A DNA stretch of 64,000 nucleotides, from positions 62,001 to 126,000 of the forward strand of contig JALDZX010000008.1 of NCBI GenBank assembly GCA_022813865.1. Reading direction: 5' to 3'. This DNA comes from Xylographa opegraphella (taxonomy: Eukaryota). Made by a program: the position numbers and the translations under genes. Under the pieces are notes generated by a model, which saw only the letters and a list, made by a program, of their open reading frames with translations, was not told the DNA's origin and did not search any database. Below, in pieces: positions 11,586 through 55,323 of the stretch. Each line of letters begins with the position of its first letter. The stretch's first letter is position 1.

Positions 11586-11764
11586 GACTGCCTGCTCAGG
11601 CCTTGAAGTTCAGCATGTTGTGTGAGATAGGATAACAGATATGGTATCTATAAATCCCCTTGTGTTTCCCCCATTCAAGTTGCCCAGACCACACTTCCCA
11701 CGATCCTGCTCTCAGCATCAGCTCTTCTTATTTTGTTGCCGCTTCGACAATCTCCCAAGAAGAG

Positions 11765-13396
11765 ATGTCAGAGAAGTCCTTTACCGAGAAGGGGGTACAG
11801 CACCATGTCGAGAACGTCAATGATGTTCACCCTGTGGGTGGCGTCCATGAGGTGGTTTTCCAAGGATCCGAAACACTGAAAGCTGCCCTTGAGAAAGAAC
11901 CACCCCAGCCACGATCCAGACGCATGTTGCAGCTGTACTTGATCGTTTCTGTCGCCTACCTTTGCTCCAGTCTTAATGGATACGATGGCCAACTGATGGG
12001 AAACATGCTTGTTCTTCCCGCATTCGACTCGGAATTCGGCGCTTCTATCGTCGGTATCAAAGCTGGTTATATTTCAGCCATGTACACAATTGGCGGTGTC
12101 TGCTCTCTTCCCTTTGTTGGGCCGGCTGTTGATACATGGGGTCGCCGTCCTGGTATGTTTATCGGTTGCTTCTCCGTTGTTCTCGGAACCATCATCGAGG
12201 GTACCTCTGGAATGACGGGCAGTCTTGGTCAATTTCTTGGGGGGCGGTTCTTACTCGGGTTCGGTGTCAGTATCGCCGCCTCAGCAGCGCCAATCTATGT
12301 ATGCGAGATCTCTCATCCTGCCTACCGAGGTATCATGACAGGACTATACAACACTATTTACAACGTCGGCGCGATTGCAGCTGCCGGTACCCTCCGCGGT
12401 GGAGAAAACTACCCAGGCAACGCTTCCTGGCTGATCCCCACCTGGATTCAAATGGTCTGCTCTGGTATCGTCTGCTTATTTTGCTTCTTCCTGCCAGAAT
12501 CACCTCGATGGCTGTACACGAACGGAAAACAAGAACAAGCTGCTGCTGTCATCACCAGGTACCATGGTCTTGACAACCCAGAGAGCGTCTACCTGAAAAT
12601 GCAGATGCAAGAATTTGGCGATGAATTGAACTTGGACGGTGCCGATAAGCGCTGGTGGGACTATAGAGCTTTGTTCAAGGATCGGGCTTCCCGCTATCGC
12701 TTGATGTGCAACTTGGTTTTGACTGTGTGGGGCCAATGGTCTGGTAACGGACTCACATCCTACTTCATGCCCGCCTTCCTCGCAACCGCCGGTGTGACAG
12801 ATCCAACCACTGTTCTCGACATCAACCTAGGTACCTCCTTCGCCGGCCTTTTTGTCTCCATAACCGGCGCTACCTTCGTGGAGAAAATTGGACGTCGCAA
12901 ACTCTTCTACAGAATTCTGCTCGTCATCTCATTCTGGTGGGTTCTAATCACAATCACCGCTGGTGTTTTCAACAACACAGGAGCAAAGGGCGCTGGTGAT
13001 GCTGCCATTCTGTTTGTCAATCTTTTTGGAATCACATACTCCTTCGGTATCACACCTCTGCAGGCACTGTACCCAGTCGAATGTCTGTCGTACGAACAAC
13101 GCGCCAAGGGTATGGCTTTCTCGTCTCTTGTTGTCAATGCCGCCCTCATGGTCAACCAATTCGGATTGCCCGTGGCCATCCAGAACATCGGATGGAAGCT
13201 CTACATTGTCTTCGTCGGTTGGACACTCGTCGAATCAGCAGTGGTCTACTTCTTCCTCGTTGAGACCAAGGGCCGTACTCTGGAGGAGCTTGATGAGATA
13301 TTCAACGCACCCAACCCACGGAAGGCATCTCTTGCGGTCAAGAAGGTTACTCTCGACGCGGAAGCTCATGTGCTCAACGTCGAGAAAATCAAATAG
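11765..13396 (+). CDS. MFS sugar porter, lactose permease / cellodextrin transporter-like
   Basis: NGYDG, DTWGRR, PIYVCEISHPAYRG, PESPRWL, QWSGN, EKIGRR and ETKGRTLEEL sugar-porter motifs; intronless. Confidence 0.92.
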   Translation: MSEKSFTEKGVQHHVENVNDVHPVGGVHEVVFQGSETLKAALEKEPPQPRSRRMLQLYLIVSVAYLCSSLNGYDGQLMGNMLVLPAFDSEFGASIVGIKAGYISAMYTIGGVCSLPFVGPAVDTWGRRPGMFIGCFSVVLGTIIEGTSGMTGSLGQFLGGRFLLGFGVSIAASAAPIYVCEISHPAYRGIMTGLYNTIYNVGAIAAAGTLRGGENYPGNASWLIPTWIQMVCSGIVCLFCFFLPESPRWLYTNGKQEQAAAVITRYHGLDNPESVYLKMQMQEFGDELNLDGADKRWWDYRALFKDRASRYRLMCNLVLTVWGQWSGNGLTSYFMPAFLATAGVTDPTTVLDINLGTSFAGLFVSITGATFVEKIGRRKLFYRILLVISFWWVLITITAGVFNNTGAKGAGDAAILFVNLFGITYSFGITPLQALYPVECLSYEQRAKGMAFSSLVVNAALMVNQFGLPVAIQNIGWKLYIVFVGWTLVESAVVYFFLVETKGRTLEELDEIFNAPNPRKASLAVKKVTLDAEAHVLNVEKIK

Positions 13397-16426: not shown

Positions 16427-17628
16427 TCACTCAGAATCGTAATCAACCAATGGCGGCTTCAAGACATCGACAACCGGAGCTGGGTCCTGCTGTTGCCTTT
16501 TCTCTTCTTCGGCTTCTGTCCGTTTCCTTTTGATGCCAGGCATTGCACCTGTAGAAACGAAGGCTGCTTGGTCGACAAGAAACGGGTCCATGACCGCTCT
16601 TGTATTCTGTTGGAGTTCAAATCGAAGGGCTTCCCGCTGTCGTTCGGCTACTTGCTCGGCCTTCAGCTTCTTTGATTTCTTCCCAGAGCTTACTCTGTCT
16701 TCCACACAGATGGATTCTGTGGGAAACAAAGGCTTCGCTCGAGCTTTGACAATTGCAACCTCACTACCAGCCGCTCCTAGACCCCCGAACTCTACAAAGC
16801 CGGCTCTTCTCCGATCCTCCTCGGTCTCGGGCAATAGTTCTATGCCAAGGCTCATTCTGTCCTTGAGCCCTTCGGTCAGAGCCAGGTTCTTTTCCCTGAC
16901 TTTCCTCTCCACTCTAAAACTCTTACGAAGCCTCCTACTCGCAGCGTACGGGTCATCCCAATCTCTGTCTCCTGCCTCCAGGAGTTCTTCAATCCTCCCC
17001 TTATCCGTCGCCGCCTGCTTCTTGTCTCCAACCTTCACCTCCAGCGCCGCAAAGGCATCATTCTGCAGCCTCTCCCTCTCCTCGTCTGTTCTAAGCACGA
17101 TCTCACCCTCATGCACCTTATCGTCCCCAGTGTCCCTCTTCTTCGCGCCCTCCATCACCACGTACGCAGTATTCTTGGGGTCCGTGCGTATCTCTATCCA
17201 ACCTCCGCAAGCGGTGTGCTTCATACGGAAACTGAATATAGGAGTGCTGTAATAGTTGCCAACCTTCTTCTTCTCCGCATTGAAGCGCACGCCTTGACCG
17301 ATGATGGTAGGTTTAGGGCAGGTCGTGCACCAGATCGGATAAGGCATCTCGAAGCGCACCGTAAGAATGCCTTGGCCGGCTTTACGGGCGCGATTGCCAA
17401 GGGCATGTCTGATCGGTATGAGAATGTGGAATGTACAAGGAGGGGAGCAACTCACTTGCCCGCCAGCTTGTTGGCTGATATGGTGCCTTCATGATCTGGT
17501 GGGACATAACTGTTCCGGCATTAGCTACGCAAGTCGGTGTGAAGTCGGTAGCAAATACCGTCCCATATCTGAGAGAAGTCAGTATATAGTGGACACAGAA
17601 GATGCAACGACATACTGAAACCCTGCAT
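16427..17628 (-). CDS. Saf4/Yju2 (CWC16, CCDC130-like) splicing factor
   Basis: Spliced MQGFNMGRYVPPD start, including a 10-nt micro-exon at 17559-17568; VRFEMPYPIWCTTC, GVRFNAEKK and IRTDPKNTAY motifs. Confidence 0.9.
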
Positions 17629-19087: not shown

Positions 19088-20188
19088 ATGGCCAGGACGA
19101 TCAAAGTAGCTGCAGCCCAGGTCGGCGCCGTTCACGTCGACTCCGATCGCTCAGATACTCTCAAGCGTATGATCAAGCTCTTGGATGAAGCAGCTGGACA
19201 AGGAGCCCAATTGGTCCTCTTTCCGGAGTTGGCTTTCACAACGTTCTTCCCACGGCACCTTTTCAAAGACGATAGCAAACTAGAGGAGTTCTTCGAGCAG
19301 GGCGAAGACATATCAAAATCGGAACATGTGAAACCGCTCTTCGACCAGGCGGACAAGCTGCAAGTGGACATCTCCGTTGGCTTTGCTGAGCGAACCTCAC
19401 GTGGGACTGGTTACAACTCGTGCCTATACTACAGTGCCAAGCGAGGTGAGGTCCTAGCAAGGTACCGCAAGGTGCATCTCCCAGGGACAAAGGAGCCATT
19501 CGAGAATCCGGATGCCGTCCAGCAGCTCGAGAAGAGATATTTCGAGCCGGGCGATTTGGGGTTTAAGTCTTTCCGTGTTCCAGAGCTTATACCGGGAGCA
19601 CTGAAAGGTGACAGCTCCAACATCGACACCGTTGGGAAAGGAGATCCTATTGTTGGCATGATGATATGTAATGACCGCCGTTGGCCGGAAGCCTGGCGCT
19701 GCCATGGTCTACAAGGTGCTGAACTCGTGCTGTGTGGCTACAATACTGCAGGCTGGGCTCCCGACTTGTGGGGAACTAGGAAACCTATGACGAAAGAGCA
19801 GGCGCAGGAGGAAGCTTTGTTTCATCATCGATTGGTAATGCAATCGAACAGTTATATGAACGGATGCTTCTCGATCAGTGCCGCAAGAGCTGGACTTGAC
19901 GACGGCAAATTTGACTTAATAGGGGGAAGTTCTATTGTGAGCCCGGAAGGACATATACTGGTTGAGGCTAAGAGCAAGGACGACGAAGTCATCGTGGCGG
20001 AGATAGACCTCGAGGAGTGTAGGCAAGGGAAGGAGAAGGTTCGTTCCGTTGTCTTCATATTTCTAATGAACCGAAAGTCACTAACAGCTTTCAAGACATT
20101 CGACTTCGGTCGACACCGACGTACAGAAGCGTACAGTCTGATCACCTCACAAACAGGCGTAGTCGAGCCTCCGCTACTCGCGCATTAA
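19088..20188 (+). CDS. N-carbamoyl-D-amino-acid amidohydrolase (D-carbamoylase, nitrilase superfamily)
   Basis: Catalytic triad in FPELAFTTFFPR (E), YRKVHLPG (K) and ICNDRRWPE (C), plus LEKRYFEPGDLGF; these match the D-carbamoylase signature. In-frame 57-nt intron 20039-20095. Confidence 0.9.
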   Translation: MARTIKVAAAQVGAVHVDSDRSDTLKRMIKLLDEAAGQGAQLVLFPELAFTTFFPRHLFKDDSKLEEFFEQGEDISKSEHVKPLFDQADKLQVDISVGFAERTSRGTGYNSCLYYSAKRGEVLARYRKVHLPGTKEPFENPDAVQQLEKRYFEPGDLGFKSFRVPELIPGALKGDSSNIDTVGKGDPIVGMMICNDRRWPEAWRCHGLQGAELVLCGYNTAGWAPDLWGTRKPMTKEQAQEEALFHHRLVMQSNSYMNGCFSISAARAGLDDGKFDLIGGSSIVSPEGHILVEAKSKDDEVIVAEIDLEECRQGKEKVRSVVFIFLMNRKSLTAFKTFDFGRHRRTEAYSLITSQTGVVEPPLLAH

Positions 20189-20239
20189 GCGCAATACACA
20201 ATTTCCAAATTATCTCCAAACCATTACTCGTCCTTCTCA

Positions 20240-21106
20240 TCATACCCAACTCTGCCCTCTTCTCCGCCTTCCCTCTCCCGCACTCGCATACACTCCGCCC
20301 TTCCCCGTCCTCAACCCTTCCCTCACCAACCCAACCAAAAACTGCACCCCAACACCCACACCCTCCACAACCTGCACCCCGTCTCCGACCCTCTTCCCCA
20401 CCTTTTCCCGCAAGCCTACCATCCCCGCACATCCCAAACAAACACAATCCGCCCCACGCCCCACCAACCTCTCCCCGGCATCGCACATTCGCCTCGCCAC
20501 CTCCTCCGACTCTAGCGTCTCCAGCTCCAGTACCCCCATCCCCGTCCCCTCCGCACCTACACTGGACCCGGCCAGGCCGTACCCGCGGATCGCATCCTCG
20601 TGCATCACCACGCTGCGCGCCGCCGTCGCTACGATTCCCAACCGTCCGCCGAGCATGCGCGATGCGTACAGCGCCGCTTCCATGATGCCCACCACCGGCC
20701 CGGAAACCTCTTCCCGCAGCGCGGCGATGAGCGGATGCGCCGAGAAGCACGCGACCAGGAAGGCGTCAAATTTCGGCTTGCCGGTATTGGTACCGGACGC
20801 GCCAGCGGAGAGCTTCGAGCTCTCGGCCTCGTCGTGTAGATATGGTAGCAGAGCGCGGATACATTCCGCGGCGGAGAGCACGCCATCCAGGTGCCCTTCG
20901 ATGGCGGAAGGGGCGGGCGCTGGGGCGGTGAAGCCCGTGACGGTTACGCCCTGGGGGATGGTCGGCGCGAGGGAGGTGAGGCACGCGGTTGTCATGTGGG
21001 GGGTGGAGTTGGGGTTGATGAGCAGGATGGAGATTGGGGGGCGGGAGTCGCCGGTTATGCTAGGGAGGGCGGGGCTGGAGTTTAGGGTGGAGGCGGAGGT
21101 GGACAT
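20240..21106 (-). CDS. Hydantoin racemase (Asp/Glu/hydantoin racemase family, DCG1-like)
   Basis: ILLINPNST..MT, VACFSAHP and LGCAGM (two catalytic Cys), PVVGIMEAA. Confidence 0.9.
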   Translation of the reverse strand: MSTSASTLNSSPALPSITGDSRPPISILLINPNSTPHMTTACLTSLAPTIPQGVTVTGFTAPAPAPSAIEGHLDGVLSAAECIRALLPYLHDEAESSKLSAGASGTNTGKPKFDAFLVACFSAHPLIAALREEVSGPVVGIMEAALYASRMLGGRLGIVATAARSVVMHEDAIRGYGLAGSSVGAEGTGMGVLELETLESEEVARRMCDAGERLVGRGADCVCLGCAGMVGLREKVGKRVGDGVQVVEGVGVGVQFLVGLVREGLRTGKGGVYASAGEGRRRRGQSWV

Positions 21107-21891
21107 GTTGACGTGAGAATTGGGGTCGGTGGGTGAGTGCGCTGTCGGCTTGGTGGGTTGTGGTATGGACTTTGTGAAGAGGGCGGTTGTTGTTGCTTGT
21201 TCGCGCAGCGGAAAACGTTCAGGAGAGTCGTAGATAGGGCATGGTGATCATTACTTCGCATCTTACCCCATCCTTTATCGTGCAGCAGCTAAGGTAGGTG
21301 ATCTTTGCAGCGCTCGTGGGACTATTGCCTGCTACGTACGTGGCCGTTGATCCGGTCTCGTTCTGGAAACTCGTTGCGTGCTGGGCAGTCGGGCTATGAT
21401 ATCATAAGCCTTATCATAAAATACAGCTAGGATACGAGCCTACGGCTTCTCTCAAGAGCGGTTTCACCGGAGGAACCAAGTCCTTCGCTTAATTATGTCG
21501 AGGTGGTTTCTCCGGTCAAACCGGGTATGAATTATGTGTCAAAAAGGGGGTTTTGTGGCCCAGGAATAGGGGCACTATGTGAATATTTTTTTAAAGACGC
21601 CAAGATTTCAATAGAGAGTACCAAGGACAATTGAGAATATGCCCTGATCAGAGAACCATGCTATGCTGCAGAAATCCCAATCCGGGACGCCGGGGATATC
21701 GACCGCGTCAGCAACTTTCGCTGTATACGTCGTCCTACGTCAGAGAGTCCGTTCTTCAGAGCATAAGGGAGATTTCCTCACTGCAGTCACGCTTTCGGAG
21801 AGTACACAATTGGTGCGGCCTGAGGGCCTTCGACGCAGTTAACCAGGGGTCCAGAACAAATTTTCGGGCACCAGGAAAGTAGCAGCTCGTG

Positions 21892-23274
21892 CTATGAATC
21901 GCGCTCTTTGTTGTTACCAGACCTCGTTGTATCCTCGCCAAGGATCCTGTCGAGGAAAGAACTCCCTCTATTGAGGATTCTCACAAGACCCTGAAGTACT
22001 ACCAGACGAATTCTGCTGTACAATCTTTTGGGATGGTATGATGGAAGCAGAGGTTCCAGCCATGAGTGACGAAGTAGTTCTTTTGCTGTAGGTCACTGCT
22101 CGGGGTCAACGTTCAAGATAGTCTCGACAAACTTCCAATCGTATTCGCGGCGGCCATAAAGCTCCTTCAACAGAGAACTCGTAACTATTCTACCATCAGG
22201 TAGACGAGGGGGAACCTTCGAAAATGCTTCCAATTTGAGTTGCATTGCTTTCGGGGCCCGTTCAAGTAACGGCTCGGGAAACGGAAACAGTGCATTCACA
22301 GAACGAAGCCAATTATCCTGACGTTCTTCTTCCGATTCTGTGAGACCGTTGAGTGGTCGAAATAGGATACCCCGAGGACCAAGAAGAAGCGATCCAATCT
22401 GTAGCCCAGTTGAGCGTTATTGAGTAGAAGAAAGAGTGACACAGATGGAAGCACAACATACAATAGCCCCAATAGCCCAGACTTCGACCGCCGTCGTTAG
22501 GGGCATCCCGATCCATGATTCAGAACTTCGCCAAGACAGGTTGTCCTTTTGATCACTCCAGTCATTACCCACGTCAGACGTTGATCCGCTATATAAGTAT
22601 GGACGACTATTATATGTATGGTGTTTCGGCACTTACCAGTTCCGACGTCCGTCAGCTTGACCTCGAGGTCAGGGTTAAATCCATCCGGCAGACGCGTAAA
22701 AACAATATTTTGAGGCTTTATATCTTTAAACTTTAAGCGACATGTTCGGCTTTGTAGTACACGGAGCTCACCTGTGTGTACTATACCACGTTCATGCATG
22801 GAAGCTAGTGCTTGAAGAAGCTGCCGAGCGATAGATTTGACCTGGTTGGATGTAAGAGGACGTTTTGCAACGAAATGCACGTCATCCAGAGACATTTCGC
22901 CATACTCTAGTACAGCTGCATCTATTTGTTCGGGATTTTCTACAAGTCTGATCCGATCAACAAGCTGTCGGATCCCAGGTTGCCCTTTGAATGGGCCGCA
23001 GAGGAGGATAATCTCTTGTTTAAGCTCATGCCTGGTATAGTCCTCGAGTTGTGGGTCGTTTCGTAGCGGAGACTTGATAACCACTTTTTGATCGTCGCTG
23101 GTATATAGTCAGTACAGCCCAAGCAGCTGGAGTAACGAGTTATTGAGTGATGAATTACTTTAGTGACTTTGCAAACCATACATGCGGAGCGGTCTGAACC
23201 TGCTCTATCAATCGGTAACGGCGGCGGGAGACACCGGTCAGTATCGCTGAGGGACGAAATCGGACCAAGGACAT
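21892..23274 (-). pseudogene. Ser/Thr protein kinase, probably disabled
   Basis: Exons give VVIK, HTDIKPQNIV, LTDVG, WRSSES, VEVWAIG, DPEQ*PTAKELLRHSWL. An in-frame TGA at 22093-22095 replaces the conserved subdomain XI Arg. The splice phase after DVG does not fit the WRSSE frame, implying a 1-nt lesion. Confidence 0.7.
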
Positions 23275-23570
23275 GACTCAAATATAGGCTTGTACAGTGG
23301 GCATGTCTTGCTATATAGATTTACGTTCACGGTAAAGCGGTGTCACGGGATTGAGAATGATCAACTGGCCTTATAAGCTAATCTAATATTAAATCCCTAA
23401 AGACATCACAGATGCAGTATTTGGGTAGAAGTATGGATTTTCAATTGGGAGCTCTTCTAAATCCGCCCGAAAGGATGTCTGACATCAGAGCGAGAGTGAC
23501 CCCACAACACACTGTGACAAGGAACTGCTTCCGGAGGGCGCCAGCGTGAGGGATGCGGAAGCAAACGAAA

Positions 23571-26500
23571 TCAACAAGGAAGCCAATTTGGCGCCAGGCT
23601 CGGACAATTTGAGAGCGAAGGCGAAATAAGGCAAGTCTTTTCCGTGAGGAAAACCCTTTTCGTATCATCTTGGAGGGCCATTTCCTCGAAGAAGCTGATA
23701 AGTTTCAGACCAACAACCTCATGATCCATATCTGATCGAGTTCGAAGCCTTTCGACCCATAATGGCATAGCGACCTCCTCAAGTCTATCTCCAGTCACTT
23801 TCATTTGAGTATCCTGTACCATCTGTACTAGATTGCACCAAGGAGCTGGGTGAGGGTGGACAACTTGGTACACACTGGTAGCTCCCCCAACTTGCTTCTC
23901 TCGTGTGAGAATATCCTTTATGGTCTCAGCTGCACAATCAACAGGCAACCAATCCACTTGTCGCTCTGTGAAAATCGGAATGACCTTCATCTGGACAGAA
24001 GTCGCAAGCATAATGGGATACATATCTTCCTTACTCCATAAGCCGTACTTACTATGTCCACACAGCTGTCCAACGCGCAACAGCACGCAACCTGTACCTA
24101 ATTGTTTACTTGCGGCCTCGGTAACTCGTTCGGCTGACTTTCTATTAGTCTCTATGTGGATATTGGCAGGGAGGAAATGGTTACCAATAAACTTGCTCTG
24201 AGCATAACCCGTCTCCAAAGCCACCGTGGGATCATCTCCGAGTGATTGTTCTGGGACTTCGTCGCCCTTGAAACCTTTGCCCATACATGCACTGACACTA
24301 CTGGTAAAAGCAAATACCTTTCGTCTGCCGGTGTGACAGAAGCGAATAAGTGCCACGGTACCTACAGCGTATCAGAAGTGCCACGAGAAATGACCTTGAG
24401 ATTGACGGACCTCTAATACAATCGTCCTCGAACTCCTCCACCGTCTGATTGAAATTGACCTTCCATGCACAGTGTATCACAGTCGTCACTTCATTAGAGA
24501 TTCGATGGTAATTGTCAATGTCTAATCCTAACAGTGGGTCTCTCATGCTGTAATTAAGGAGTTCTAGCTTTCCACTGTTGAGAACCCTGCTTGCATCCAT
24601 ACCACGGTCTTCAAGTGACTTTCGCAAGCTAGCATATCTATCTAGTCCCCTGACCAAGGCAAAGATCTTAGATACCTCGGAAGAACTCGATAGGATCTTT
24701 AGTAGTGCTGAACCCAAGGACCCAGAAGCACCCGTGAGAAGCACAGCATTCATACCGGCACATTTATCGGCAGTGGTGGGTAAAATAGGCCATGAAGCGA
24801 AGTCTGCGGTACATCTGGCGATGGATTTATTGATGAAGATTATGTGCTTATCTTCCTTTGTTCTTGTCTTTTCTCCCGAGAAATATTCTGTTAGCTGACT
24901 GATTGAAGGGTGCTCGAAAATTGTTGATAGTGAGACCGTCCCCATCAGCTTAGAGAGGGATGATCGGAGTTGTAGAGCCGAAAGAGAGTCCATGCCGATA
25001 TCATAGAAGCTTGTCGTATCTTCAATATTCATCACGGGAATGTCGAAGGCTACTGATACATGATCTCGTAACAATCTTGGAAGCGAGCCTCGATCGTATA
25101 ACATTTCACGGTCGAGCTCACCATCAACACCTAAAAGCTTGTCGTACATTCCATTGATGATGTCCTCGAAAACAGCCAAAGATTCGTTTCGTTTAACATT
25201 GCCTTTGGGCGTCACTGGTAAGACGACACCCGGTGGAAGGATGTATATCATAGAGCGCAGGACCTGAGAGTGCCTTGGATGATTTTTGTTTATCTTCTGT
25301 ATTCCAAACCAAAGATTGTCGATTATCTCGTCGTGATCCATTCCCATGTTGGCTTTGAGCTCCACGAGAATACCGACACAGGGTCTTGAATGGCCCACAG
25401 CCAATACATTCTTGACCATAGGACTCGCATCTTGGATATCTAGCTGGAGGGAACCGGCGCTGGTGTTGTTGCCATCTGAGTGGACAAGAAAATCGTCTCG
25501 TCGGCCCTGAAGCACAAAGTTTCCGCTTTCTGGGGGGTCTTGCTTGAACATATCGTTCGTGCCGTAAGGCTTATCATTCCCATTGACCCAGAGTTCTGCC
25601 GCTAAGTCAAAGCCTTTGTGAACAATACATTCATACAGTCCGCCTCCAACATCTTGCATCTCAAAATTGCCGTTATCTGGATACAAACTTCGCAAACTGT
25701 AGCAATTGGGATTTTCCCGGCTATGCGGAATGGAACGCATGGGAGGACCTATCTCTGTGGATCCATACGTTGTCTTGATATTGACATCAAGGGATGCGAG
25801 TCTCGTAACGAGCGCGTCTGAAAGTTTGGCTCCTCCTGGTTGCAGAACTTTTAGGGAGGTAAGCATTGAGAAGTCATCATTGTTCTTAGTGATATACTCA
25901 TAAAGGCTTTCAATGATAGACGGGGCACAGTGAATACAGTCAACGGGATAATATGACAGCGCCAGAGTCTCGCAAGCTTGAAGTATGGAAGATGCCGAAG
26001 GCGGCCAGGAGAGAGGAGGTAGAGACGTTGTCAAGCCATTGGGCAGACCTGAGAGCATTATGGAAATGCCGGCGATATGATACCTTTAGTGCGGTCAGGA
26101 AATGCATGTTATGCCGGATATACACGTGAAAGGTTCTCACATACAATGGAAACAGGAGAAACCAATTTTCGATGTGAAAATCGGGAAAAAGTCGATACAT
26201 GCGGGCAATTAACATCATACTGCGGTTCGTATGTACAATTGCCTTTGGCGGTCCTGTGGAACCGCTAGAATGGAGAATAAAAGAGTGGCGCTCCCATGGA
26301 TCACAGTTGTCCTCAAACCGGAGGAAATCAACTTCACTTTGAGGTACCACGACATCGAGCCGACATTGCAGCTCAATCATCGGAATGCTCCGCATAATGG
26401 ATGACGCTCCTTCAGCATTCCGTCGATCATGAACGATGGCAAGGGCCTGGCATTCAACGAGCATGGTTTGGATCACATCACTAGGGCTCTTGTCGGCCAA

Positions 26501-26932
26501 GAGAAGTACACGAAAATTGAGCTTTTGAAAGGCGATCTGGGTGCAGAAATAATCTAAAGTTGTCCCCCCTCCGAGAAGAGCAACAGTAGGCTGTTTGAGG
26601 TCTTTGAGAGCTGCTATAATTTCGTTATGGAAGAGGTGGCCATATTCCATAGCAAGGCAATCGGTGACTTGGTGGAACTGGTCCCAAGTGATCGACAGAT
26701 ACGACGTATTGGATCTGTTCGTGGCGGGATACATGAAAGCAACCAGATCATGGAAAATCTCGGCATTGTGCTTGACGAGAGCTCCCAGATTGTCCAGCCT
26801 GGAATTAGAGTATCTCACGGAATGTGGATGGCCATGAAGCCACCAAAGCTCCTTAGTCTTTTCAGGAGCATGAGCGGAGACCACAACAGACGGATCGGAG
26901 CATGATGATACAGGTTCAAGACTTCTGGTCAT
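23571..26932 (-). CDS. NRPS-like enzyme (adenylation-thiolation-reductase; carboxylic acid reductase type)
   Basis: A domain LHSSGSTGPPKAI, YGSTEIG, GRRDD, TPKGNVKR; T domain FYDIGMDSL; R domain LLTGASGSLG, HCAWKVNF, GYAQSK. Three introns (26144-26084, ~24410-24362, ~24184-24134). Confidence 0.88.
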
Positions 26933-28497
26933 GGCAGCGAGGTGTTTTGCCAAAAAACCAAACACGACGGACGATAGATAGTGTGTTACGGAGGACCTTG
27001 ACGATGGTTTTCGTCGGAATTTGAAATGAGGTACGGACGGTAAAGTAGTCTGTTATGTAATGTCGACATGATGTTCTGTTGGTCGAGATTGTACGAGAAA
27101 ATGCGCGATAACTTCAAGGTTCATGTGCTAAGAGTTATCGGGAAGGTTCAGTCTGTATATGCGCTAGTAACAATGGTGCGGAATAGCTGTTTTAAATCCA
27201 TCTCCCCATCGGCGTCATTGATAAGAAGGTGCTGAACTATAGCTTAGCCAATAGATTGATTCGGCTTATTAGAAGTTATTCACCTTCGAAGGCCGCCTTT
27301 GCCATTGATTTCCAACACAATAAGGGTTCAAATTAATACTCCGACTCCCAAGATATAGCGAACATAATCCTACAGACAGCGCGGCTACTATCAAGACTCC
27401 AGTAGACATATAAGGGCAGACCACTACATCTGTTTCCAAGTATTCATCGCTTTCTCCACATTGCACCGCAGGCTATCAACCGTTATCCAACTTCTGGAAT
27501 GTCGGACCGTCTGATTGTGAAGCATTTGGGAAGATCTTCACAAGATCATCAGAGAGCCGTACGCCGAATCCTGTTACACTGGCCCAGTATTTGAACAAAT
27601 GCAAACAAGAAGCCCGCGCAAAACCTGGCGGACCAGTTGCTTCACAGTGTAGCGATGATTAAAGCATTTGAAAGCCCAGGTCCACATGCTACTGGTGCCG
27701 ATGCAGCCACCATGTAGCCAATGGTTTCGTCCATGTGAAATAGCAGTATGATGTAGGAAACACAAAAGACCTCGGATTTCTAGCATAACAAGGCTATCTC
27801 TGCTTGATAGCAAGAGCAGCGTCGCTGAATACCTCGGCAGTGATATGTTGCCTTCAGGCGGCCTTCTGACTTCACCGACTCATGGTATGCCAACATGGTC
27901 CAACACTCATTTCTTCCACGAGTCTGGTATGAGGTCTAGGTCTGCCTTGCTGGTCGTCCGGACCGAGTCGCCGTTGTGAAAGAGTCTCAATTTGGTTGAA
28001 AATACAGGGTTGGCACTCGTCCTATGCTTGCAATTTGGAAAAAAGTCAATCAATAACGAAATGTCAAGTGGAGTACTCCGTATATATCCTTGCAGAAAAT
28101 GTATGTACATGCAAGTGCCTTAGAATCCAGTTCCTCAACCGGCAGAATTAACTCATTTCTGTCCAGTTTCGGGACTTCAGGAATCAGGTACGCAATAGTG
28201 CTATAGAAATTTCCATACATCACCACTACCCGATCCTATTTAGCACCATGGAGCAATGAAGAACATTCAATCTAAATTCGCGAGAGAGCGCAAGATGACG
28301 AACGTCGGTCCAAGCACGACAGGCTAAGTCCTCCTTATCGCGCCCCCCTCGAACCAAGCCCCAAGTGAGGATGGAAGTGCCGTTGTGGGCTAGGGCATTG
28401 TGATAGAGTTCGACGGCAATGTCAGGAAATCGTCTCGAGAATCAATCAGACGTAGGAGACGTCTACTCAGAAAGAAGTGTTCTACACACGTGCGATC

Positions 28498-30061
28498 ATG
28501 GAGTTTGACCTGATAGTGAAGAATGGAATCATCGTGAGTCGTCCTCAGCCTTTTGCGCCCCTGGACTCGTTTCCTGAGACCTAAGCGAGACGGCTAATCT
28601 ACTCTGGGCGGCCTCCAGGCATCTGCATGCGATGTCATCGCTGGACAGGACATCGGTATCAAAGATGGAAAGATCATTGCTCTTGGTACCGCCCTCGAAG
28701 CGACATCATCTTCGACCACAACCATAGACGCCCAAGGCGGCTATATCACCCCCGGCGGTGTAGATAGCCATGTTCATCTCGAGCAGCCCAACTGCCCGAT
28801 GGGCGATACCTGGGAGACCGGCTCCAGAAGCGCTGTGTGTGGTGGTACGACAACCGTAATAGCATTCGTATCTCAAGCTCGTCAACATGATAGCCTACTT
28901 CCTCTCGTAGAAGAGTACAGTGCCCGAGCGGAAGCTAACTCGTATTGCGATTACGGCCTCCATCTCATTCTCACGAATCCTACGATGAAGATCCTGACCG
29001 AGGAAATACCGACACTTGCCAGAGAACATGGAATCACCAGCGTCAAGCTGTATATGACTTACGATCCGATGATACTTCGAGACCGGGAAATACTGAACAT
29101 TATGATGGCATCCAGGAAGTTAGGCATGACTACAATGATTCATGCGGAGAACCATGATATGATTGATCTCATAATTGAAACACTTGAAGCAGAGGGTAAG
29201 ACTGAACCCTATTACCACTCTGTCTCTCGGCCGAAGATTGCAGAAGCGGAAGCAACATATCGAGCAATCTCTTTGGCCGAACTCATGGATGCACCGATCC
29301 TGCTGGTCCATGTGTCTTCTCAAACTGCAGCGCAGCACATAAGAGATGCGCAGACTAGGTTGCTGCCTATATACGGCGAGACATGCCCTCAGTATCTATG
29401 GCTCTTGGCTGAGCGGCTTAAGGGAACTGAAAAAGACCATTTTCACGGCGCTCAGGCTGTTTGCTCTCCACCTTTGCGTGAGACTTCAGCAGAAACGGAT
29501 GCTATGTGGAGAGGTATCGCAAACGGTACTTTTACGACATTTTCATCAGATCATGCGGCATCCAAGTACCATGTGGAGGGTGGGAAAAAGCTGGGTCTTG
29601 TTGATGGAAAGCCATTCTTCAGGAAAATTCCAAACGGTCTTCCTGGTCTGGAAACGCGATTACCTCTTCTCTTCAAGGGAGTTCTCGAAGGCCGCATATC
29701 AATTCATGACTTCGTAAGAGTTGCATGCAGTTCTCCTGCCAAACTCTATGGTCTTCCAAGCAAAGGAGCGATACTACCAGGAAAGGATGCAGATCTGTGC
29801 ATATGGTACCCCCATGGAAAGATGAAGTCGTTCAGCCTGAGAAATGATATGTTACACCATGACATTGACTATACACCTTACGAGGATCTAGAATTTGCTA
29901 ATTGGCCACGATATACGATCCTCCGTGGTAAGGTTGTTTGGGACCGGGATGGAGAAGGGTTGACAGGCAAAATGGGGTACGGCCAATATATCAAACGAGG
30001 GGCAAGTTTACTCCCCGGGCCTCGAAATGTTTTTGTCAATGAATGGAGGCCGCCCATGTGA
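28498..30061 (+). CDS. Hydantoinase / dihydropyrimidinase (cyclic amidohydrolase)
   Basis: Exon 1 MEFDLIVKNGII; intron 28534-28618; metal ligands in PGGVDSHVHL, SVKLYMTY (carbamylated Lys), IHAEN, VHVS, SSDHA; also PNGLPGLETR and DYTPYE. Confidence 0.93.
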
Positions 30062-30198: not shown

Positions 30199-31038
30199 TC
30201 ATGAATCAAGATCCTCCTTTAGAACTTCCCACATTCTCTCTTCATCTTCCAATTCCCTGTCCCATTCTTCATCATCACCTCCCCTACTATCCTGTCGTAA
30301 TTCAGTTTCATTCACTCTGCTCTCCTTCACTTCCCGCTCAGCCAGTCCTTTGCCCAAGCCTTCTAATATTTTATCTATCCTGGTCCTTAATTCTTCGATC
30401 CCTTCTTTTTCTCTCCTTCCTCTCTCGACTTGCGCTTCCATCATCAATATCAGTGCTTCCCTTGCCTGGTGCGGTCGATACTCGTTCACAGCTTGGTGTG
30501 CATTACGAAAGAGGTCGCGTAGATCATCCCATTTGGGGCCGTACTCAGTTGATGAAGGATTGGTAGCAAGAATATGAACAAGTTCGAGGAAGTTTAGTAG
30601 GATGGATCGGGTCAGTTGGATAAGACTGGCAGGGGTTGGCGGAGAGGTGTACAAAGTAGATGTTTCGTCAGGCAGTGGTATTATAGGGGCGGCGAGCTAC
30701 AAGAAAAGGTCAGTGCCTTGTTTGCGTTTCCATCGGGCACAAGACAGGAGTAAATTGTGCATATATCCAGAACAAACACTTACTGAACGGTCTTCACCGA
30801 AAGAGCGATACCGGCCATTGGGCGGTGGCGGAGGCGGTTGGAGGTATCGAAGCTCTGAAGGAAGATCAAGCAACGAATTCAATGGGCTTCGGTTATTTCT
30901 GTTATCTTCAAGATCTGTGTTCGAGTCTGCCTGTAATTCGGCGAAGCGGGCAAGATTCGTCTCTGTGAAGTGCTTATAAAAGGGTGGTGGAGCAGGGAAA
31001 GCGGCAGTAATGCTGGAACTCGTCTGTGGTTCTGCCAT
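30199..31038 (-). CDS. MED7: Mediator subunit 7
   Basis: AAFPAPPPFYKHFT, YLQPPPPP..YRSFG; intron 30783-30697; SILLNFLEL, NEYRPHQARE. Confidence 0.92.
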
Positions 31039-31861
31039 TGTGCCATGCAGTGTGGTCTTGTTTAAGCGACTTTGGTGGCATCGCGCACCAAATACTAACA
31101 CTTCATGAGCTACCGGCGAAGTACTCGTTAAGTTTTTGTAGAATGTTCCTCCAGTCAACCAACGCACTTGATAGGGCTGAGTGGTCCTCGGAGTTTAGAG
31201 TTATAGCCGATCCCATGAACAGGACATACTTGACCGCAAGCTAGATATATGACCCAACATTCGTCTTTGAACCATAATGTCGCTGCATAACGATTGGGTT
31301 ACCTATGTATCTCGCGTAAAATTATGTCTTTCACGAGAGTTTTGCTTATTTAAGGTGACAAGACACTAAATAGAGATTTCTATGAGCTTGAGTTTTTACG
31401 ATAGTTTGAATCACGGTAGTGAATCTCAACCACTTAATACGCTTTTACACCAGCTCTTACCACCAAGTATTGAAAGCATCATCTATTCGACATCTTATTA
31501 CGAAGTATTCAACTTACGTGCCAGATCCTCGTGCTGACTTTGGTCATCGCGGGCAACCAGATCCTAGCGCCTTGGCTTAATCTTCGCGCTAAGAAGCATC
31601 ATCAACAAATACATTCGACCTCAGCTCTCTGTATATTACTCAACCCACCCGCAGTTATAGAACAACTTTACCAGCCCCACACTCCTCTGTCGAGGCAATC
31701 ACCACGCTCATGGTGGCTAAGGACAGCTTCCGTACCAAAATGATTTTTTCAATATAGATTTATCAATCCACAATCGCCCTCGGAGCACGGCGCGTGCAGG
31801 CCTCCACCACTACCCCTCCACGCATCCTTCAGATTCCTGAGGGTGCAATAGAATTCTACGT

Positions 31862-45379: not shown

Positions 45380-46929
45380 CTAGAAGTAATCCGGGAACAA
45401 CCAGCGCAGCTTCCGCACCGTCTCCTCCGGCCTCGCCCCTCTCGCCGTCATGGCGCCCGCCCCCTTCGTCTGGCCCTCCCACCCCTTGCCATGCACCACA
45501 TCCCTCACCGACGCGGCTCCACTTCCACTTCCACCCCCACTTCCACTCCCACTTCCACTTCCACTTCCACTTCCACTTCCACTTCCACTCCCACCCTCAC
45601 TCCCATCCACCACACCCTCCTCCTCCCCTAGCCGATCCAGCACGGCGCCCACGACGCGCCTCGCGTTCGCCGCGTTGGCAGCCATGTGGCCCATGACCAT
45701 GTCGACGGAGACGGACTCGTGCACCCCGTGCCAGCTGTCGTAGTCGGTCGACATGCAGACCATGGCGTAGGCGAGCTCGGCCTCGCGCGCGAGCTTGGCC
45801 TCGGGCAGGCAGGACATGTTGATGCACGAGCCGGCCCAGGAGCGGTACAGCATGGATTCGGCGCGCGTGGAGAATTGGGGGCCTTCTGTTTGCCGGGGGG
45901 GGGGGAGGGTTAGTTTGGATTGGAGTGCGAGAAAGGGGGATTGGGGGTGTTGGGAGAGGGGATTGTGGGGGTGGTGAGGGTGGAGAGATCAGGGAAAGGC
46001 ATTGACGAGGTGTGATGGCTGTGATTGGGAGAGTGGTCCGGGGAGAGGGGAAAAAGTGACGAACCCATGCAGATCAGAGTCCCCGTCTCGTGGAGCTTGA
46101 TATCCTCGCCTTCGAGCACGCCCTTGCCTTGCACGGCGTCGATGATGATGGCGCGGAGGGCGTTGTCGAACGGGTCCGCGAAGCCGATGTGGCCCACCAC
46201 GCCGCCCTCGAAGTACGTCCACGGCCGTACCTGATCGGAGCTCAACGTCAGCGAATCGTTTCTGGTAGTCGGAGGATTTGCAGTGAGTCTGTCCCTCGCG
46301 CTGCCTGACTGATCCAGCGCCTTTTTGAAATCCCGCCTGTTTTGATCCTCGATCGCCCGCAAAGACACATGAGACGAGAGAAGACGAAAGAGAAGCCCAA
46401 CCCACCCCCTTCGTCCGATCAACAACCTGATCCGGCACCAAAAAATCCCGCGGCCTCACCTCCTCGCGCAGACTGCCCACGGCACTAAACGCCAGCACGC
46501 AGCGGACGCCCAGCTTCCGCAGCGCGGCGATGTTGGCCCGCGACGGCACCTCGTGCGGCGCGAGCTCGTGGTGCAGGCCGTGCCGCGACAGGAAGGCGAC
46601 GTTGAGCGGCGCCCGCCCGCGGCGCGGGTGGGAGAGGATGGTGATGGGCGACGAGGGCGCGCCCCATGGCGTGAGGAGAGAGGGGTGCGAGAGCGGGAGG
46701 TGCGCCGCGGGCGTGAAGGCGGGGAGGTGCGAGAGGCCGGTGCCGCCGATGATGGCGATTTGGACGGCGCCTGGGAGGGGAGAATGGTTAGCTGGCGCTT
46801 TTTTGGGGCCGGGGGGGGCTTCGATGTTGGGGGACTTGATGGGGCAGGGGGTGGAATTAAGGGTAGGGTGGTTGGACGGGTGGTAGGCTGCTGCGGCGTA
46901 CCGTCGAAGTGGTCAGGCAGCTCGGCCAT
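45380..46929 (-). CDS. MEU1: S-methyl-5'-thioadenosine phosphorylase
   Basis: IAIIGGTG, FLSRHG, RANIAALRKLG, SAVGSLRE, DRTKG, EGPQFSTRAES, INMS..PEAKLAREAE, STDYDSW; three introns. Confidence 0.92.
45519..45596 (-). repeat. (GGAAGT)n hexamer microsatellite encoding a Gly-Ser run within MTAP
   Basis: ccactt repeated about 12 times on the + strand, imperfect. Confidence 0.9.
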
Positions 46930-52607: not shown

Positions 52608-54293
52608 TCACACCTTATAAAAGCAAAACGCATGATAAAAGCCCACGGCCTCGAGCTCCTCATCCGACAAGCGCAGCGGCCCCTCGGCGGCAGCTTGGAC
52701 CTGCATGCGCACGCTCAGCGGGCCGAGGACGGAATGGCGGCGCTCCTCGGCCCAGACGTCGGCGAAGGGCCGGCGGTACTGCAGCTCGAGGTTGTAGTCC
52801 TCCGCCAGCGCGCGGAAGGCCTCCCACGGCACCACGTACTCAGGCACCTCCTCCACCGCCTCCGCCATGAAGTAGCTGTACTTCCACCCGAACGGCGGCC
52901 GGAAGACGCCGTCCGCCGGCGTCGCGCCCGGGAAGCGCACGCGGTAGATGCTGTTGCCCCATTCGGGCACGGGCGCGTCGGGCGTGGTGGCGGCAGGGGC
53001 GCTGTCCTTGGGGTTGGGGGGCGCTTCGTCTGTGTGCTCGCGAGTCGCCGCCTCCTTTGTCGTGGTGGTGGTGGTGGCAGCGGCGGCCTGCGCCTGGTGA
53101 AAGGCCTCGACCTTGGCGCGCAGCACGTCCGAGTTCGGGATCACGCCGATGAGGCGGCCGCCCTTCTTCAGCGCGCCCGCCACGTTGCGCAGCATGCCGC
53201 GCGCCTTGGCCTCGCTCTCGAACGCGTAGTGCATGCAGAACATCATCGTGACAACGTCGAAGCCGCCGCCGCCCCACCGCACGCTGCCCCCGCCGCCGGG
53301 GCCCACGCTGCCGTCGATACCGACCTCCCGCACCAGCGGGATGTCTCCGATCCACTGGCCGTAGCCGTCCGCGGCGTAGAACTCGCCCTGGAAGATCCTC
53401 GTGTTCCCGCCGGCCCGGCCGCGCATCTCGGCGTATCGGTTCCGCGCCTGCTCGATCGACACCTCCGCCGGGTCGATCCCCACGTACAGCTCGACTCTTT
53501 GCGGCGCTTTCGCCCATTTGCCGAGATCGCCCCCTTTCCCGCATCCGATGTCTAGCACCAATATGCCCTTCCCTGGGTCCCTCCCTCCGGGAACGAACCC
53601 CTCGTTCGGTGAAAACTTCTGTATCAGAGTGCTCTTGACCCAATTGTTGTAGTTTCTTAACCCCTTGATGCGGCTTCCTGTCTGGCGCCAGTCGCGGCCT
53701 CGCTGGGGGACAGCATTGTAGTGCTGCCGGACGACATCGTGCACGCCACGTGTAGCGGCAACTGCCTGTGCGGTGGAGATCTGGTCTGCTTCTCGTTCGA
53801 TCTGCCGGTGGCGGAGGGCTTCCTTTTCGGCGGCAGCGATGCGGGAGGCTGCGCCGGGGCGTTTGCGCTCGCGAGGCGGAGATCGAGGCGGAGGGGTGGG
53901 CGATCTACGGCTGGGAGGCGGTGATTTTCGGAGCTTGGTTGGCGTTCGATCCTTCGAGTGTGGGGAGCGCTGGCGCTGGCGGGGGGGTGGAGGTGAGCGG
54001 CGGGCAGGGGCTAGCTTGATGCGTTTGTGAGAGCTTCCTGATGGGGAGGCCGCGCGTTTTCGGGATGTAGGAGGTGATGATGCATGGTCAGCTCGTTCGG
54101 GCTGAGTCGGAGGTGGAATTTCAGAAGGAGAGGCCGCTCGTTTGCGCGACTGTCGTTGAGATGACTCGTCCTTTGGAGCGGCGGTGGTGGGCTTGGCTTC
54201 CGTTGAGACATCGGTTAGTTGTGCTGGGTTCTCTTCTTCTGGTGCTGGTGCTTCGGCTGACGCGGTGAAGGTGTCACGAGCAGGATCGTACAT
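52608..54293 (-). CDS. ABD1: mRNA cap guanine-N7 methyltransferase
   Basis: VRQHYN, LRNYNNWVKSTLI, VLDIGCGKGGDLGKW, MFCMHYAFESE, VPEYVVPW, FYHAFCFYKV. Confidence 0.95.
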   Translation of the reverse strand: MYDPARDTFTASAEAPAPEEENPAQLTDVSTEAKPTTAAPKDESSQRQSRKRAASPSEIPPPTQPERADHASSPPTSRKRAASPSGSSHKRIKLAPARRSPPPPRQRQRSPHSKDRTPTKLRKSPPPSRRSPTPPPRSPPRERKRPGAASRIAAAEKEALRHRQIEREADQISTAQAVAATRGVHDVVRQHYNAVPQRGRDWRQTGSRIKGLRNYNNWVKSTLIQKFSPNEGFVPGGRDPGKGILVLDIGCGKGGDLGKWAKAPQRVELYVGIDPAEVSIEQARNRYAEMRGRAGGNTRIFQGEFYAADGYGQWIGDIPLVREVGIDGSVGPGGGGSVRWGGGGFDVVTMMFCMHYAFESEAKARGMLRNVAGALKKGGRLIGVIPNSDVLRAKVEAFHQAQAAAATTTTTTKEAATREHTDEAPPNPKDSAPAATTPDAPVPEWGNSIYRVRFPGATPADGVFRPPFGWKYSYFMAEAVEEVPEYVVPWEAFRALAEDYNLELQYRRPFADVWAEERRHSVLGPLSVRMQVQAAAEGPLRLSDEELEAVGFYHAFCFYKV

Positions 54294-55323
54294 GATACTG
54301 CCGAGTGGAGGTTACTGGAATTGAAGGTGAAATATATTGTCAAAGAGACATGGTTCACTTCGACCGACTTTTTGATCTCGAATAAAGCTTACTAGTCTAC
54401 TGTTTTGGTTCTAGCGCGGTGGACGTTGTGATTGGCTGAATTGGATATGGATGGCTTGGCTGTCTGACTTCAATGTGAACATTATTAAACAGTGGAGCTG
54501 GGTGACTGATCACACGAGCGACATTGTACTTGTTGTCTTTAGTGTTGCAGACCGTGATACTTGGTATCGTGTGAGCTAATGCTCGAAAGCTTCTCAATAG
54601 AATGCGATCTACTGCAGGGTATATAAATCGAGTGACGGCAAATGCCATTTACCGATTCACATCTGGATGCTCGTAGGAGAACGCCACCTATAGTGAAGTT
54701 CAGGGGCTTTATTACATTTCATATATTTCTTTGCTGTTTGGAAGAAAGACAAGCCAATTATCGGTTATACTCTAGAACTATGATAAGTCTGGTTCTATTA
54801 CAAATCCCTTACTACAACCTGTCATGAATAACCTACCTTTAAGTATCTGGCTAGAGTTGGTGATATGGTGGGTATATTTTAGGCTTATGTATATATACGT
54901 ACTACTGAATGTAGAAGATGCCTAGGTAGTTGAGGGGTTGGGGAATACGAAGCTCTACGCTTGTATATTCTACTGGTCTATACGTAAACAATCGTGACTG
55001 ATGTTGGATCACGGTACGGAGCATGGAATAACGCAAATCCCGGGCATCAACGTCGTACAATCATAGAGAATGTCGATCTTCCTGAATTTCGTCTGTTTCA
55101 TAGATCACTCCAACAATCTTGACAACGAGGAAGTCAGACGACTAGCTAACATATTTTGGAACAATTGCAAGCGAGTCATAAATCATGTAGTCGTCAATAC
55201 AGGCATGTTTCCTTATTTCCGTTTAATGATATTCACTCTGATTTGGTGGCAACAGCCATGAATCCCAAACCGATCGTGATTTCTGGCATGGCAAACAAAA
55301 CATCAAAACCCCCAAACAGTCGT

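Follow-up and report, generated by a model that had tools for sequence, protein, structure and literature searches.

Hydantoinases, carbamoylases and hydantoin racemases are widely used in industry, yet what they act on in nature and which physiological role they play is debated even in bacteria, where the classical hyu clusters are those of Agrobacterium, Arthrobacter and Pseudomonas. A linked hydantoin permease of the NCS1 type (hyuP) is a further member of such sets. In the yeast Pyd2/Pyd3 system, the dihydropyrimidinase Pyd2 is accompanied by Pyd3, a beta-alanine synthase of the M20 peptidase type. A fungal gene of the Asp/Glu/hydantoin racemase family, DCG1 of Saccharomyces cerevisiae, lies in the nitrogen-catabolic DAL cluster and is deemed a probable allantoin racemase in extracts of PMC13751858 and PMC3646786; the genes around it encode allantoinase, allantoicase and related proteins, and a D-carbamoylase is not among them. 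In Aspergillus ustus, the oxepinamide-biosynthesis enzyme OpaE is a fungal member of the racemase subfamily that acts on a non-ribosomal peptide product, according to an excerpt of PMC12661438. The stretch of DNA considered here, 64,000 nt of Xylographa opegraphella (assembly GCA_022813865.1, contig JALDZX010000008.1, positions 62,001 to 126,000 of the forward strand; hereafter the window), comes from a lichen-forming genus of the Lecanoromycetes and carries a carbamoylase, a racemase and a hydantoinase gene. The original prediction, made earlier on this DNA, had placed these three enzyme genes within 11 kb, and they were found intact in a block spanning 10,974 bp (19088-30061), as indicated by a stop-to-stop listing of open reading frames (ORFs) and by direct reading of the sequence. 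Its assignments, a nitrilase with a D-carbamoylase signature, a two-Cys hydantoin racemase and a cyclic amidohydrolase, agreed with the matches described below. With a probability of about 0.5, we read the trio as a conserved catabolic module of Pezizomycotina working like the bacterial hyu set; it probably represents an undescribed nitrogen-scavenging pathway.

Like bacterial hyu sets, the locus brings the same three families together, side by side as at the alphaproteobacterial loci L076, L124, L132, L136 and L156, and the bacterial carbamoylases were 40-50% identical to the fungal ones with an identical catalytic motif. In contrast to the bacterial sets, the fungal genes have introns, the fungal carbamoylases, which carry two family-specific insertions, form a long-branch clade of their own, the fungal hydantoinases stand apart from the bacterial ones in the tree, and the racemase is only distantly related; the regulator encountered in fungal relatives is a Zn2Cys6 factor, and the long ORFs of the window included no NCS1 permease. 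Compared with yeast Pyd2/Pyd3, the second enzyme belongs to the D-carbamoylase type of the nitrilase superfamily instead of the M20 type, a racemase is attached and, in relatives, a dedicated regulator as well. The original prediction knew of no characterised fungal equivalent; the full-text literature, as covered largely outside subscription journals, yielded no account of a fungal cluster of hydantoinase, carbamoylase and racemase, the items closest to it being the survey of racemase transfer PMC5169069, the OpaE work and the reviews that treat DCG1. Among the papers retrieved, PMC13534542 reports a minimal-medium fitness phenotype for a dihydropyrimidinase, read by its authors as pyrimidine biosynthesis, while PMC4782317, PMC3977361 and PMC9505000 hold single mentions; none was relevant to the cluster.

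Linkage in related genomes had been set beforehand as the test that could refute the original prediction, and the genes proved to be linked. Locus tags were compared in genomes with proteins among the best 120 of both match lists. Those of carbamoylase and racemase were consecutive in seven of ten comparable genomes (X. parallela, X. trunciseda, Lambiella, Pycnora, Cirrosporium, Claussenomyces and Coleophoma) and one tag apart in two more (Rhynchosporium and Scytalidium). Carbamoylase and hydantoinase had consecutive tags in five of eight (Pycnora, Sclerophora, Bogoriella, Bathelium and Teratosphaeriaceae sp.) and were four tags apart in X. parallela, where the layout was that of the window. 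All three genes of Pycnora bore three consecutive tags. The genomes compared span five classes of Pezizomycotina, namely Lecanoromycetes, Candelariomycetes, Coniocybomycetes, Dothideomycetes and Leotiomycetes, and the linkage, which recurs in all five, is beyond chance.

When metagenomes were scanned with 22 aligned fungal carbamoylases, 79 loci were returned. Nine were judged fungal-like (identities of 52-69%, introns in some), the others looking bacterial (40-50%). Several kb of flanking sequence were available for five of the nine (L001, L002, L003, L006 and L060; gene contents in Table 1), and three of these five long contigs, L001, L002 and L003, displayed all three genes together. Hydantoinase and carbamoylase were the tightest pair, divergently transcribed, in these three contigs and in L006. 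Gene order and orientation varied among loci, and the association must therefore have been kept through rearrangements. Far from being special to X. opegraphella, the cluster occurs widely among Pezizomycotina. A chance neighbourhood of three unrelated genes might be suspected from the two unrelated-looking genes lying between the hydantoinase and the other two, or from the unusual composition of the racemase gene; as the association turns up in five classes, with varying gene order and a common regulator, it is so improbable as to be nearly negligible.

The placement of the nitrilase in the D-carbamoylase branch of its superfamily is supported by sequence comparison, and D-specific hydrolysis is predicted. 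In a search of solved structures, 11 D-carbamoylase chains matched at E values of 5e-60 to 1e-58, whereas the next-best chain, 3ivz, deposited as a nitrilase/beta-ureidopropionase, reached only 2.5e-16. Every motif (FPE, YRKxHLPG, LEKRYFEPG and CNDRRWPE) aligned with D-carbamoylases. The signature ICNDRRWPE occupies residues 193-201 (19664-19690), CNDRRWPE being residues 194-201, and is the same as in the bacterial enzyme in the alignment. The catalytic residues are Glu47, Lys128, Glu148 and Cys194, of which Glu47, Lys128 and Cys194 aligned with the triad of 1erz and were invariant in 22 fungal carbamoylases. The triad of D-carbamoylase is given as Cys172, Glu47 and Lys127 in bacterial numbering, and docking and molecular dynamics of the Pseudomonas enzyme indicate that Asn173 and Arg176 hydrogen-bond the substrate (excerpt of PMC11503299). 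Equivalents of both contact residues were retained in the window carbamoylase, inside CNDRRWPE, and its C-terminus agreed with the consensus of fungal relatives. Fungal carbamoylases also displayed two insertions relative to bacterial D-carbamoylases, at window residues ~165-188 and ~224-240; the first lies directly upstream of the strand of the catalytic Cys, and its K173, G183, G185 and D186 were invariant in the 22 fungal sequences.

The amidohydrolase scored 419.3 bits against TIGR02033, above the cut-off of this D-hydantoinase/dihydropyrimidinase equivalog (393.25, NCBIfam), and 527 bits against PRK13404. It remained below the cut-off of the allantoinase model TIGR03178 (203 bits, cut-off 358) and of the dihydroorotase models. 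Binuclear metal sites of this kind are built from HxH, a carboxylated Lys, two His and an Asp; the corresponding motifs HVH, VKLYM, IHAENH, LVHVSS and SSDHAA aligned with the best solved relative, the dihydropyrimidinase 2fty (8e-120), which is Pyd2 of Lachancea kluyveri. Bacterial D-hydantoinases ranked after it, at 4.5e-96 and weaker. All ten linked fungal hydantoinases examined fell into two subclades, and two unlinked ones, from Coleophoma and Scytalidium, into a third; confinement to two subclades hints that the linked enzyme may be a specialised paralogue. Two dihydropyrimidinases of the basidiomycete Tricholoma matsutake (P0247, 71% and P0260, 68% identity) nested in the ascomycete subclade of the window enzyme, which suggests transfer from fungus to fungus.

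Since no solved structure is closer than a dihydropyrimidinase, the true substrates may be dihydrouracil or dihydrothymine. The trio would then form the last part of reductive pyrimidine catabolism, with the nitrilase acting as a beta-ureidopropionase in place of Pyd3 and the racemase as an accessory for dihydrothymine or an unrelated ureide. The NCBIfam family name, dihydropyrimidinase, fits this explanation, as do the tight divergent pairing of hydantoinase and carbamoylase in four contigs and the lack of a racemase within 10 kb in L006. It agrees poorly with a nitrilase far nearer to D-carbamoylases than to 3ivz and still carrying CNDRRWPE, with a hydantoin-type racemase that has the tag next to the nitrilase in seven of ten genomes although a route through achiral dihydrouracil would need none, and with linked hydantoinases being restricted to two subclades. 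We regard this explanation as unlikely, though it deserves attention.

The racemase is encoded by an uninterrupted minus-strand ORF (21106-20240) and displayed Cys120 (ACFS) and Cys226 (LGCAGM), an NPN motif at residues 31-33 and Met38. Both Cys residues and the NPN motif were invariant in 24 aligned racemases (20 fungal and four bacterial). Its solved relatives were the allantoin racemases 5lfd (3e-19) and 3qvj (4e-17), with which the Cys positions aligned. In PMC12661438, the 2025 OpaE paper, the pocket residues of allantoin-hydantoin racemases are Asn12, Met17, Thr/Ser118 and Thr119 in K. pneumoniae numbering; three of these four positions were matched in the window (Asn33, Met38 and Thr161), and the Thr/Ser118 position was not. 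With allantoin racemases as closest solved relatives and the DCG1 precedent in the DAL cluster, one could picture an allantoin or purine branch in which a Dcg1-like racemase acts on allantoin (5-ureidohydantoin), the amidohydrolase opens it and the nitrilase decarbamoylates allantoate. The amidohydrolase, however, falls well short of the allantoinase model and passes that of D-hydantoinases, and neither the window nor the fungal loci showed a further gene of purine catabolism; such a branch is very unlikely.

Composition set the racemase gene apart from its neighbours. Its guanine-cytosine (GC) content was 0.66 and reached 0.78 at third codon positions (GC3), against a GC3 of 0.46-0.57 in the neighbouring genes, and two 400-bp bins inside it had a GC content of 0.64-0.66 versus 0.43-0.53 in the remaining bins. 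This composition was considered as a sign of recent transfer of the gene and rejected as evidence for it: two unrelated window ORFs, an mRNA cap methyltransferase (52608-54311, GC3 0.76) and a phosphorylase-superfamily ORF (45989-46912, GC3 0.66), were similarly GC-rich, indicating that GC3 is patchy across the genome, and the racemase orthologues at other fungal loci were not GC-rich (GC3 0.45-0.61). At residues ~89-113 (~20768-20842), the window racemase contains a low-complexity insertion of ~25 residues (YLHDEAESSK...GKPK), shared by one aligned Xylographa orthologue (X. vitiligo, P0122) and lacking in most other aligned fungal racemases. Fungal racemases also have a conserved N-terminal LPS[VI]TG extension, in a region outside the four partial bacterial stretches aligned.

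For a hyu-like module, we infer substrate, D-selectivity, order of steps in vivo and nitrogen scavenging from these families and motifs as follows. The two-metal amidohydrolase would open the ring of a cyclic ureide, most likely a chiral 5-monosubstituted hydantoin, with dihydropyrimidines as the obvious alternative. The Cys-Glu-Lys nitrilase would decarbamoylate the N-carbamoyl acid so formed, yielding an amino acid, NH3 and CO2. The two-Cys racemase would interconvert the enantiomers of the ring, so that both could pass through stereoselective enzymes. Chiral substrates of the 5-substituted hydantoin type are favoured over achiral dihydrouracil because of the conserved racemase partner and the intact substrate-contact motif of the D-carbamoylase.

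An orthologous gene for a Zn2Cys6 "fungal-specific transcription factor" adjoined the racemase in L001, L002, L003 and L060. The L060 copy shared 69-75% identity with its L002 counterpart and 77% with the available part of the L001 gene; L003 offered the gene start only (51-61% identity), and a more distant homologue (37-38%) lay beside the partial carbamoylase of L073. A k-mer comparison of intergenic regions uncovered a 15-nt near-palindrome, TTGCCCGACGGCCAA (pattern TTGSCCGNCGGSCAA), in carbamoylase/hydantoinase promoters of such loci (Table 1). The pattern TTGSCCGNCGGSCAA occurred exactly once per carbamoylase promoter in L001, L003 and L060, its flanks were not conserved, and half-site variants were encountered in the racemase-regulator spacers. 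By an arithmetic estimate, ~0.003 exact matches are expected in the ~85 kb of fungal-like loci, and an exact TTGSCCGNCGGSCAA site was absent from the 154 other loci fetched. The motif has an everted CCG-N-CGG core, which is typical of Zn2Cys6 sites, and is a candidate binding site of the adjacent regulator. A generic scan for CGG-Nx-CCG spacings revealed no spacing common to at least six promoters.

Two genes stand between the racemase and the hydantoinase of the window: a protein-kinase-like gene and a non-ribosomal peptide synthetase (NRPS)-like A-T-R (adenylation-thiolation-reductase) gene. While the trio of the original prediction stood, these two had been overlooked. The kinase-like gene had no tblastn match in L001-L079 and thus none at the other cluster loci; it displays HTDIKPQN and DVG where canonical kinases have HRD and DFG, and may encode a divergent kinase or pseudokinase. 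The start of the A-T-R gene was put at 26932, ~1.5 kb from the start of the divergently transcribed hydantoinase. Its atlas neighbours were ascomycete A-T-R clusters. Homologues adjoined the cluster in L002 (3-1334; 49-62% identity) and L060 (497-3799; 45-50%), which is why the association is not peculiar to Xylographa; gene orders around A-T-R differed between the window, L002 and L060. In the carbamoylase tree, L002 and L060 grouped with Phlyctema, Mollisia, Phialocephala and similar genera, presumably all Leotiomycetes. Adenylation domains that activate amino acids carry an A4 motif FDxS, the Asp of which binds the free alpha-amino group; the window A-T-R displays FPLY-H instead, suggesting as its substrate a carboxylic acid that lacks this amino group.

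The A-T-R gene inside the window block and beside the cluster in L002 and L060, together with the action of OpaE on a non-ribosomal peptide product, might announce a secondary-metabolite cluster built around A-T-R, in which the racemase would epimerise a peptide-derived product in the manner of OpaE, with the hydrolases in a tailoring role. This is highly improbable: the contig sequences of L001, L003 and L006 lacked an A-T-R gene, among bacterial relatives the trio occurs in surroundings that look catabolic, and the racemase retains the polar Asn and Met of the allantoin-hydantoin signature where an OpaE-like pocket is hydrophobic (excerpt of PMC12661438). An extension of the catabolic module beyond salvage was considered as well. 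The A-T-R carboxylate reductase, recruited in several fungal lineages, would turn the released N-carbamoyl acid or D-amino acid into an aldehyde feeding an unknown specialised metabolite, under a Zn2Cys6 regulator recognising TTGCCCGACGGCCAA; we hold this to be clearly unlikely.

Coordinates of all features are collected in Table 1. The block is delimited by housekeeping genes, Saf4/Yju2 on the left and Med7 on the right, with a Dbf4 gene beyond Med7. As the original prediction had it, carbamoylase and racemase are tail-to-tail with 51 bp between their stops, and two of the enzyme genes have introns (57 and 85 nt); the introns and the fungal housekeeping neighbours establish the enzyme genes as residents of the fungal genome. 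In protein searches, the nearest proteins came from Xylographa spp., with identities of 91% (carbamoylase), 85-90% (racemase) and 95% (hydantoinase).

Table 1. Features of the Xylographa opegraphella window and of the loci compared with it.
Feature	Sequence	Position	Strand	Basis or remark
Saf4/Yju2 splicing-factor gene, housekeeping, left flank	window	16427-17488	-	Pfam Saf4_Yju2 1.2e-69
D-carbamoylase-type nitrilase gene, 347 aa	window	19088-20188	+	Pfam CN_hydrolase 1.9e-47
Carbamoylase exon 1	window	19088-20038	+	ATG at 19088
Carbamoylase intron, 57 nt, in frame	window	20039-20095	+	GTTCGT...CTAAC...AG; splice sites read
Carbamoylase exon 2	window	20096-20188	+	spliced translation checked, 347 aa
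Spacer between converging carbamoylase and racemase stops, 51 bp	window	20189-20239	.	sequence reading
Hydantoin/allantoin-racemase-family gene, 288 aa, intronless	window	20240-21106	-	Pfam Asp_Glu_race 1.6e-49
Protein-kinase-like gene with one or more introns, limits approximate	window	~22093-23108	-	Pfam Pkinase 1.9e-08, partial stretch
NRPS-like A-T-R gene, three ORF pieces joined by introns	window	~23571-26932	-	Pfam AMP-binding, AMP-binding_C_3, PP-binding, NAD_binding_4
Dihydropyrimidinase/D-hydantoinase gene, 492 aa	window	28498-30061	+	NCBIfam TIGR02033, PRK13404
Hydantoinase exon 1, 12 codons	window	28498-28533	+	ATG at 28498
Hydantoinase intron, 85 nt	window	28534-28618	+	splice sites read
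Hydantoinase exon 2	window	28619-30061	+	splice sites read
Mediator subunit Med7 gene, housekeeping, right flank, two ORF pieces	window	30199-31194	-	Pfam Med7 1.3e-27, 1e-18
Hydantoinase, carbamoylase, racemase	L001			within 5 kb
A-T-R, hydantoinase, carbamoylase, regulator, racemase	L002			
Hydantoinase, carbamoylase, racemase	L003			within 13 kb
Hydantoinase, carbamoylase	L006			racemase not found in 10 kb downstream
A-T-R, carbamoylase, racemase, regulator	L060			hydantoinase not found
Zn2Cys6 regulator	L001	5574-6730		
Zn2Cys6 regulator	L002	6594-8760		
Zn2Cys6 regulator	L003	20293-20992		
Zn2Cys6 regulator	L060	10940-13452		
Zn2Cys6 regulator	L073	384-2267		
Exact TTGCCCGACGGCCAA site	L001	2822-2836		carbamoylase/hydantoinase promoter
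Exact TTGCCCGACGGCCAA site	L003	9292-9306		carbamoylase/hydantoinase promoter
Exact TTGCCCGACGGCCAA site	L060	7797-7811		carbamoylase/hydantoinase promoter
Double-carbamoylase loci	L080, L086, L087, L097-L099, L112, L113, L115, L127, L129, L130			

The nearest bacterial carbamoylases (45-50% identity) were alphaproteobacterial, from Acetobacteraceae/Roseomonas, Bradyrhizobium, Roseiarcus and Methylobacterium. A racemase-family gene was present within 6 kb in 26 of the 78 closest bacterial carbamoylase loci and a hydantoinase of at least 35% identity in 21; both partners were encountered in 12, and 21 had a distant amidohydrolase only. A quick maximum-likelihood tree with 127 rows united the 27 fungal carbamoylases in a single clade (SH-aLRT 100, stem 0.83), apart from the 100 bacterial rows; being midpoint-rooted, the tree shows a single fungal origin and not the direction or date of a transfer. 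Fungal hydantoinases likewise formed one clade (SH-aLRT 100) against nine bacterial ones adjoining bacterial carbamoylases. The fungal racemase was only ~30% identical to bacterial racemases beside carbamoylases, so that the histories of the three fungal genes may differ. According to a survey (excerpt of PMC5169069), Asp/Glu/hydantoin racemases have frequently entered fungi by horizontal transfer. At 12 of the 78 bacterial loci, belonging to Acetobacteraceae such as Roseomonas, a second, diverged carbamoylase (41-43% identity) accompanied the closest one, together with a distant amidohydrolase of 26-29% identity to the fungal hydantoinase, a different arrangement that is apparently undescribed.

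Several observations weigh against a hyu-like module. In the window, the hydantoinase is parted from carbamoylase and racemase by two genes and 7.4 kb. The racemase of X. bjoerkii, the tenth genome of the first comparison, was on a 6-kb contig separate from the carbamoylase, and in two of the eight genomes of the second, Coleophoma and Scytalidium, the listed hydantoinase was elsewhere in the genome. At the residue level, His144 of the bacterial carbamoylase is replaced by Gln146, as it is by Gln in all 22 aligned fungal carbamoylases, and the Thr/Ser118 position of the racemase pocket is Ala160; the closeness of the amidohydrolase to 2fty has been mentioned. No NCS1-type permease appeared in Pfam scans of 27 long ORFs outside the block and eight ORF pieces inside it, which short or intron-rich genes may escape, and the sole transporter in those scans was an MFS sugar transporter (11654-13396). 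The regulator had no tblastn match at 1e-5 in the 64-kb window, and the 15-nt motif was absent near the window cluster, the best match being a chance-level one with two mismatches (0.56 expected) far off at 33454. With neither regulator in the window nor site near its cluster, the regulatory evidence applies to the relatives and not to Xylographa.

Single genes of this kind had already been named by annotators as "N-carbamoyl-D-amino acid hydrolase", "hydantoin racemase" and "dihydropyrimidinase". What appears to be new is the conserved fungal cluster, its regulator with a candidate site and its recurrent A-T-R partner. The cluster adds a widespread, apparently undescribed and probably nitrogen-catabolic gene set to fungal metabolism, and biocatalysis may draw from it D-carbamoylases and racemases that are intron-bearing and eukaryote-adapted. 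With a regulator and candidate site in genetically tractable relatives, this conserved eukaryotic version offers a direct way into the natural role of these enzymes.

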